This document shows positions 19,729 to 19,890 of a stretch of DNA of 64,000 nt, piece after piece. Under the pieces are notes generated by a model. It was not told where the DNA came from. It did no database searches and saw only the letters and a program-made list of their open reading frames with translations. Position numbers and translations under genes: made by a program. Where the stretch lies: assembly GCA_964016885.1 (NCBI GenBank), contig OZ024740.1, positions 342,426,001-342,490,000 on the forward strand, written 5' to 3'. The first letter of the stretch is position 1. Each line of letters begins with the position of its first letter. The DNA comes from Eledone cirrhosa (lineage: Eukaryota).

Positions 19729-19890
19729 TATTCATTTTATTAAGGCTAAATAGTAAATCTTGTTACTCTCGAGTTTCGCCTGTTTATCACAATGTCATCG
19801 GACAAGAAGGTTCTTGTCTGATGATCCTGTGATAAACAGGTGTAACTCCAGAGTAACAAGACTCACTATTTAGGCTTAATAAAATGAATA
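19729..19890. mobile_element. 162-bp palindrome of two head-to-head hammerhead ribozyme motifs
   Basis: Consensus of the two arms: cttgt CTGATGA t cctgt gataa acagg c GAAA ctc ga gag TA acaag. Confidence 0.8.

Follow-up and report, generated by a model that had tools for sequence, protein, structure and literature searches.

The window analyzed in this work is a stretch of 64,000 nucleotides from Eledone cirrhosa. A host exon at 19274..19501 (plus strand) encodes two EGF repeats of a SVEP1-like gene, and another exon of the window matches an Octopus vulgaris SVEP1-like protein at 62% (one match among 176 candidates). The insertion studied here is intronic and spans 19682..19890, occupying both strands with two head-to-head end modules whose 3′ ends point outward and a tail on the left side only. 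Its palindromic part begins 227 nt after the exon end at 19501, close to the 230 nt downstream of an EGF exon given in an earlier note on this DNA, and its right arm is sense to the host pre-mRNA.

The left arm (19729..19809, minus strand) and the right arm (19810..19890, plus strand) differ at 11 of 81 mirrored positions. The RNA fold predicted for the palindrome reaches −101.4 kcal/mol (z = −19.4), which none of 200 shuffled sequences matched. The palindrome of 162 bp described in the earlier note is thus real, but the insertion is longer, as it includes a one-sided tail of 47 nt (19682..19728, minus strand). This was established by mapping four of seven listed runs to 19681–19890 at 80% likeness: contigs of the same species, possibly from the window's own sample (X1), contigs of another species (X4), and two sets of RAD reads (X5 and X6). 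Since the tail is covered as deeply as the arms (depth of 55,000–76,000 at 19702–19729 in X1) and 86 contigs pass from the arm end into tail-like letters, the insertion is delimited as 19682–19890 and the tail is considered part of the family. Another 43 contigs pass from the tail-less end into (TA)n, and coverage of the family fills all 30 bins of the insertion in the four runs. RAD molecules ending at 19682 (71 of 163 and 97 of 205) are partly an edge effect, as this position is near the end of the mapped stretch. The insertion is ORF-less, as previously described, with stops in all six frames. In each arm the hammerhead is followed, outward from the centre, by AATAAA, at 19878..19883 on the plus strand and in a mirror copy at 19741–19736 on the minus strand.

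The insertion is flanked by the microsatellites (TACA)n(TA)n(GT)n on the left (19606..19680) and (TA)n(GT)n(TA)n on the right (19887..20071). Its right end enters (TA)n, and its tailed left end adjoins (CA)n and then (TA)n. A second palindrome, of a Penelope-like element (PLE) with GIY-YIG fragments, at about 20043–21928, shares the right tract. No other copy of the family of the 19682–19890 insertion was found within the window.

The same head-to-head layout is present in five further pairs of 0.5–4 kb in the window, with clear tails in 21959–26041, 35826–39141 and 45379–45848, a short extension in 44092–44815, and almost none in 20043–21928. The element at 35826–39141 is a near-full, frameshifted Hydra-type PLE with inverted ends of 437 nt and a left tail of 80 nt; its hammerhead has a U3–A8 core variant and a long stem II, with cores at +39033 and −35934, and its protein presents the DKT motif, which the accessible text of Craig et al. 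2021 (PMC8557442) gives for Hydra elements. A head-to-head pair of Hydra-type hammerheads at 45310–45848 has a U.U mismatch closing stem II and a left tail of 70 nt with a hairpin; the arm homology of this insertion (45379–45848) ends 5–15 nt before the core, and no long open frame was found in its spacer. The pairs 20043–21928 and 44092–44815 (the latter a palindrome of 724 nt, 96%) are PLE palindromes in tail-out orientation; their ends are related and their hammerheads minimal. At 43942, just before the second, there is an isolated core resembling a minimal hammerhead, whose stem II has 3 bp. The element at 21959–26041 appears to be a very young PLE, with a frame of 604 aa for reverse transcriptase and GIY-YIG at 23426–25240, inverted ends of 1492 nt that are 99.9% identical and a left tail of about 40 nt; no canonical hammerhead core was seen in it. 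Other features of the window are palindromes or inverted repeats in which no full hammerhead is present (11566–11705, 7782–7938, 16286–16392, 40013–40302, and 47417–48484, the last composed of two inverted pairs, one nested in the other, flanked by (TA)n tracts); three related LINE-like reverse transcriptase copies (12418–14989, 28138–31642, and 33210–35705), one of which has a frame of 860 aa with a PHD finger; and, at about 54000–64000, a long tandem satellite with a unit of about 41 nt and strong strand skew.

Two damaged hammerheads in a high-copy family

Both arms contain a type I hammerhead, and the letters quoted for them in the earlier note are all correct. In the right arm (19812..19861, plus strand), stem I is formed by 19812–17 and 19856–61 (6 bp), the core CTGATGA is at 19818–24, and stem II (19826–40) has 5 bp, formed by 19826–30 and 19836–40. 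GTAA replaces GAAA (19843), stem III (19845–54) has strands of 4 nt, and GUA ends at 19855, after which the cut is predicted. In the left arm (19758..19807, minus strand) GAAA is intact; the core (19801–19795) reads CCGATGA, being broken at 19800, stem II is altered twice (19792–3), and the cut is predicted after 19764. The core lesions correspond to U4 in the left arm and A13 in the right arm, so that neither copy has an intact core. Neither ribozyme is predicted to cut at present, and A-to-I editing was discarded as a rescue because it is unable to repair either lesion. The motif of the plus arm is the sole match on both strands of the window for a pattern with strict stems and one core mismatch allowed.

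Stem II is closed by a pyrimidine–pyrimidine mismatch instead of G–C. In the family the G10.1–C11.1 pair is absent, position 10.1 being C (76–93%) and 11.1 being C or U; a literature search on the activity of this mismatch returned nothing relevant. Stem III of the minus arm differs from the family form, which has the loop letter of the plus arm at the mirrored site 19770 in 88–93% of coverage. An Rfam search returned no hammerhead match at the locus, which carries no information, since Rfam likewise fails to detect the motifs at 44516 and 45781, whose cores are intact.

The family matched 5895 contigs in X1, 2363 contigs in X4, and 2214 and 2510 RAD reads in X5 and X6, respectively. From the read share, about 2000–6500 copies are estimated for a host genome that we take to be 2.5–5 Gb. 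The loss of core or stem pairing in the consensus of genomic copies, which the earlier note considered as evidence against its proposal, was not observed: in the four runs the majority has the complete set of core letters and stems that pair, the core being intact in 84–97% of coverage at 19800 and in 95–99% at 19843, and stem II at 19792–3 in 76–88% in the contigs and 50–56% in the RAD reads. The lesions are therefore private decay, and the palindrome is one decayed copy of a high-copy family. Among 40 of the 121 variant rows, the 11 arm differences comprise six changes private to the left arm in relation to the family majority (19800, 19793, 19792, 19770, 19757, and 19755), three private to the right arm (19825, 19843, and 19874), one C/U polymorphism of the family, and one at the centre. 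Loose read ends at 19844 and 19737, which adjoin private changes of the window copy, were attributed to clipping and disregarded.

The one-sided tail and the clade assignment

The tail contains a predicted hairpin at 19699..19722 (minus strand), formed by CTC, a 3-bp stem, a 4-nt loop, the returning stem, a 2-nt bulge, and GAG-YRCT. In the family majority the loop is UUCG (the variant at 19713, in 53–75% of coverage). A 10-letter motif corresponding to the 3′ side of the hairpin occurs three times in the window, always in one-sided tails (insertions 19682–19890, 35826–39141, and 45379–45848), for a chance mean of 0.27 per 54 kb. The general form of the hairpin in these cases is CTC, a stem of 3–5 bp, loop, stem, a bulge of 1–2 nt, and GAG-YRCT; the descriptor was built from the same window cases, and its null is not independent. 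Single-strand folding gave the hairpin only for the tail of 45379 (z = −2.2), and the lowest-energy fold differs from it in the tails of 19682 (z = −0.8) and 35826 (z = −0.1). With one of three tails favored by energy, the hairpin is argued from covariation. A mini-intron in the tail was also considered and dropped, as 24 nt is too short for an intron.

An assembly outside the window that is filed as bacterial, G001, was useful for this comparison. Its contig L001, found with a two-protein alignment, carries a Hydra-type ORF and is evidently animal DNA. In an independent test, a descriptor scan of its 7552 nt gave two matches, each in the one-sided tail of a palindrome formed by head-to-head hammerheads, and at 5055–5271 this unrelated animal presents a head-to-head palindrome of 217 nt with a one-sided tail and hairpin. 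The assembly includes many animal contigs and 51 matches to a Hydra-type protein profile; the Hydra-2 motif published for coral is matched by one of its ribozymes (L044:2592). When the hairpin was not required, searching G001 returned 110 matches, versus 7 for the reversed pattern, and the 100 that were listed correspond to 26 sites. A ribozyme core is present 88–121 nt upstream in 12 of these sites, and all 12 have the hairpin, which is found in 5 of the 14 sites without a core and in 9 of 96 control sites. Twelve of 15 sequence clusters were scored, as they had a correctly spaced CTC and a trailing TA or CA run, and the upper stem was paired in 34 of 36 cells; the shuffle mean was 21 and none of 10,000 shuffles reached 34, in a set where related families are not independent. 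Hairpin tails with no core within 170 nt upstream were observed at C61:3454, C8:2084, C72:7276, C72:7647, and C562:1244 of G001, and some core-less hairpin tails of this assembly look truncated even further than the window palindrome.

Of the six published Hydra consensuses inspected by eye in the accessible material, three show the hairpin clearly, one has it in altered form, and it was unseen in two; the two without it have 3′ ends that stop about 50 nt or less from the cut site. Tail-less ends lie 5–11 nt before the 5′ side of the hairpin in five of five pairs (by eye). The accessible literature searched returned no description of this tail hairpin.

The unit has the features of a PLE, namely a hammerhead at the pLTR/3′ end (in the family majority), an inverted 5′-truncated partner, and a short one-sided tail. 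Its insertion in (TA)n and its hammerhead, of Hydra type when compared by eye with File S2 of PMC8557442 except for C and not U at 10.1, probably place it in the Hydra clade. As counted by eye among the 25 Hydra families of that file, 15 have the pyrimidine mismatch in stem II, 11 the GUA cut, and five the same stem III strands as the window family; all 15 published mismatch-bearing families have U at 10.1, where the window family has C. The tail is also longer here (47 nt) than the 30–40 published for PLEs in the accessible text of that work. The consensus of Hydra-2_Amil, from the coral Acropora millepora, presents a ribozyme end and a tail motif nearly the same as those of the window family. 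A protein-coding parent was not found in the window or in the read tables, the exact ribozyme pattern had no match in metagenome contigs, and searches with Hydra-type proteins had no match in metagenomes, viral contigs, or, with a single protein, genome contigs. As no ORF is tied to the family, the clade assignment was drawn from RNA motifs.

Palindrome centre, 5′ ends and alternative explanations

The earlier note considered the locus either an extreme 5′-truncated, inverted PLE insertion or a self-contained mini-element with a fixed centre. The intact core of the family and its variable centres support the first. In the mapped reads and contigs, in-register crossing of 19809 represents 6–15% of the coverage at 19816 (21 of 257 and 21 of 323 RAD reads; 6% and 15% of contig depth), and 231 differing joints were found, with skips of 52–95 nt among the 15 listed, none of which is a head-to-tail (go-back) joint. 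Then, we consider, with a probability of about 0.85, that the insertion is a decayed pair of end modules (hammerhead and tail) of a Hydra-clade PLE, composed of two very short head-to-head copies in a TA/GT microsatellite.

Family copies apparently terminate around 19810 at a higher frequency than expected from random truncation, so that a natural 5′ end may exist for the unit. Among the RAD reads that reach 19816, 203 of 257 (79%) and 270 of 323 (84%) depart at 19810 into mixed sequence (agreement of 0.55), and 72 and 53 contigs do likewise (0.48 and 0.46), counts in which the RAD reads come from few loci and collapsed repeats are under-counted by the contigs. A single shared upstream parent predicts high agreement, and these values are thus favorable to a non-coding family of short RNAs, of about 130 nt with ribozyme and tail, that has a 5′ end of its own and is mobilized in trans by a Hydra-clade protein, the palindrome still being made at insertion. 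On the other hand, a full element whose 5′ leader was copied by run-off would look identical, and X1 and X4 coincide in the final eight loose letters, a hint of some shared upstream sequence. We consider this short-RNA origin unlikely.

Other families give a mixed view of the 5′ ends. From 25 pairs, six were dropped (non-ribozyme, ambiguous, or duplicate), and seven of the 19 left came from short-spacer searches. The shorter arm ends at most 20 nt from the core in 8 of the 19, and in 3 of 11 when the pairs selected by short spacer and the window palindrome are excluded. In G001 no clear peak of centres was found at the ribozyme edge, with about 3, 2, 1, and 2 true pairs per 30-nt spacer class.

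A palindromic mini-element that propagates by itself with a fixed centre is very improbable. Near-symmetric copies with indels of 1–4 nt at 19808–9 are found in both species, and the 16 longest records listed sit nearly on the centre of the window copy, with 0–12 gaps, as a re-mobilized palindrome also predicts. However, the centre is crossed by a minor part of the coverage and differs among the 231 joints, the spacers of other families vary continuously between 16 and more than 3000 nt, and an RNA with both arms is predicted to fold at −99 kcal/mol, which would hide both ribozymes. A fold-back DNA transposon (MITE) or a microRNA-type hairpin, with the ribozyme letters being incidental, is already largely refuted and hardly credible: the palindrome is long, ORF-less, and high-copy, and has weak Rfam matches to microRNA hairpins, all far under the gathering score, but its ends are asymmetric and its centres variable, where a MITE would have symmetric terminal repeats and a fixed interior, and the family majority has every core letter, pairing stems, and a tail motif common to Hydra elements. 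Finally, a joint action of the two damaged halves as one ribozyme, in cis or via sense and antisense transcripts, can be practically discarded. It is possible to draw a two-strand fold in which the plus arm provides the core and the 5′ strand of stem II and the minus arm provides GAAA and GUA, but its helices are predicted at −9.7 kcal/mol, versus −99 for the hairpin that either strand forms with itself and −287 for the complete duplex, and the forced fold in cis at −42.8 versus −99.3 kcal/mol costs 56. With the 81-bp hairpin winning by over 55 kcal/mol, the arms cannot plausibly complement each other in the complete ribozyme that the earlier note reconstructed; nor are the complementary lesions meaningful, since 3 and 6 random changes in 81 sites avoid overlap with P = 0.79 and the arms are on opposite strands.

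Proposed origin and comparison with known systems

For the pair of decayed end modules, the following origin can be proposed, in which the nicking, the two start sites, and the formation of the tail are taken by analogy from the anole element PAc, assayed in vitro (accessible text of PMC11167929). The GIY-YIG endonuclease of an autonomous partner would nick AT-rich DNA, and the reverse transcriptase would start inside the RNA at two alternative sites, beyond the tail or immediately ahead of its hairpin, so that one arm would have a tail and the other none. The two copies would end close to the ribozyme's 5′ edge; the favored reason, at roughly even odds, is that the template RNA starts there, and ordinary truncation is the alternative. 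The two inner ends would then be joined, or one would fold back, corresponding to two cDNAs or to a fold-back, and the arms would mutate independently after insertion. In the host pre-mRNA, the region would fold into an 81-bp hairpin.

A broader proposal, which we hold tentatively and as somewhat less than an even chance, is that the tail hairpin is a start signal of Hydra-type reverse transcriptases throughout the clade, kept by covariation in coral, sea cucumber, and an octopus-like host, and also that the 210-bp palindrome is the minimal mobilizable unit. The enzyme would bind the hairpin and start just before it or just beyond the tail; using the first hairpin of the transcript, it would run off the 5′ end of the RNA after 80–130 nt. 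We further infer that the hairpin positions the starts of reverse transcription and that the short copies are run-offs from an RNA beginning at the ribozyme edge. If so, the palindrome would be two joined run-off copies of the RNA leader, and would map both the transcription start and the protein-binding site. A TATA-like run about 30–40 nt before the core was observed by eye, in AT-rich sequence, in L136 and in the consensuses of Hydra-2_Amil, Hydra-1_Ajap, and Hydra-2_Ajap as accessible; such a run would place the transcription start near the 5′ edge of the ribozyme.

The locus itself is ordinary debris, one among thousands of dead intronic copies. Its value is as a minimal specimen of a PLE insertion, which bears on why these elements form inverted pairs and why the tail is at one end only. 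The hairpin, in turn, is a precise candidate for the RNA signal of the Hydra-clade enzyme, and may serve as a marker to classify ORF-less fragments in invertebrate genomes.

The family is new, but its kind is already known. Craig et al. 2021 (PMC8557442), in the accessible text, describe the PLE insertion unit as including an inverted 5′-truncated copy and a one-sided tail of 30–40 bp. Hydra elements from that source, as Hydra-2_Amil and Hydra-2_Ajap (Apostichopus japonicus), have the same type I hammerhead about 100–200 nt from the 3′ end, a near-palindromic stem III of 4 bp, GUA, (TA)n targets, an inverted 5′-truncated partner, and the tail hairpin motif; Hydra-2_Ajap has also the same pyrimidine mismatch closing stem II. 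Unlike these elements, the window palindrome has no ORF and both arms are cut to the ribozyme edge, and the published octopus member, Hydra-1_Obim, differs in sequence from the window family.

Pairs of hammerheads on opposite strands, about 100–700 bp apart, were ascribed to truncated PLEs by Cervera and de la Peña 2014 (PMC4209133). In the accessible part of that work, the minimal hammerheads of metazoan PLEs share with the window family a short palindromic stem III predicted to be dimer-dependent and copies dispersed genome-wide, but present a conserved G10.1–C11.1 pair with a bulged base, whereas here there is a mismatch and the cores are 16 nt apart. Head-to-head is the commonest arrangement of the Penelope elements of Adineta vaga in the accessible text of Arkhipova et al. 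2013 (PMC3846280), whose pLTRs also present an inverted head-to-head junction, an optional tail on one pLTR, and solo forms; their palindromes, on the other hand, are junctions of 18–38 bp inside larger insertions, and here the palindrome is the whole insertion.

The tail of PAc (Poseidon, Anolis) is made by two internal start sites, and its ribozyme is dispensable for insertion in vitro, according to the accessible text of Frangieh et al. 2024 (PMC11167929). As in the window family, its hammerhead is followed within about 100 nt by a tail, which is set by two start sites at a stem-loop, and its targets are AT-rich; PAc belongs, however, to a different clade, and its stem-loop is AC-rich and lies inside the ORF. 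The non-LTR retrozymes of animals (bioRxiv 10.64898/2026.07.22.740005, as accessible) are also non-coding, with a type I hammerhead and a proposed derivation from PLEs, but they form head-to-tail tandem arrays, while the window palindrome is an inverted pair with a PLE tail.
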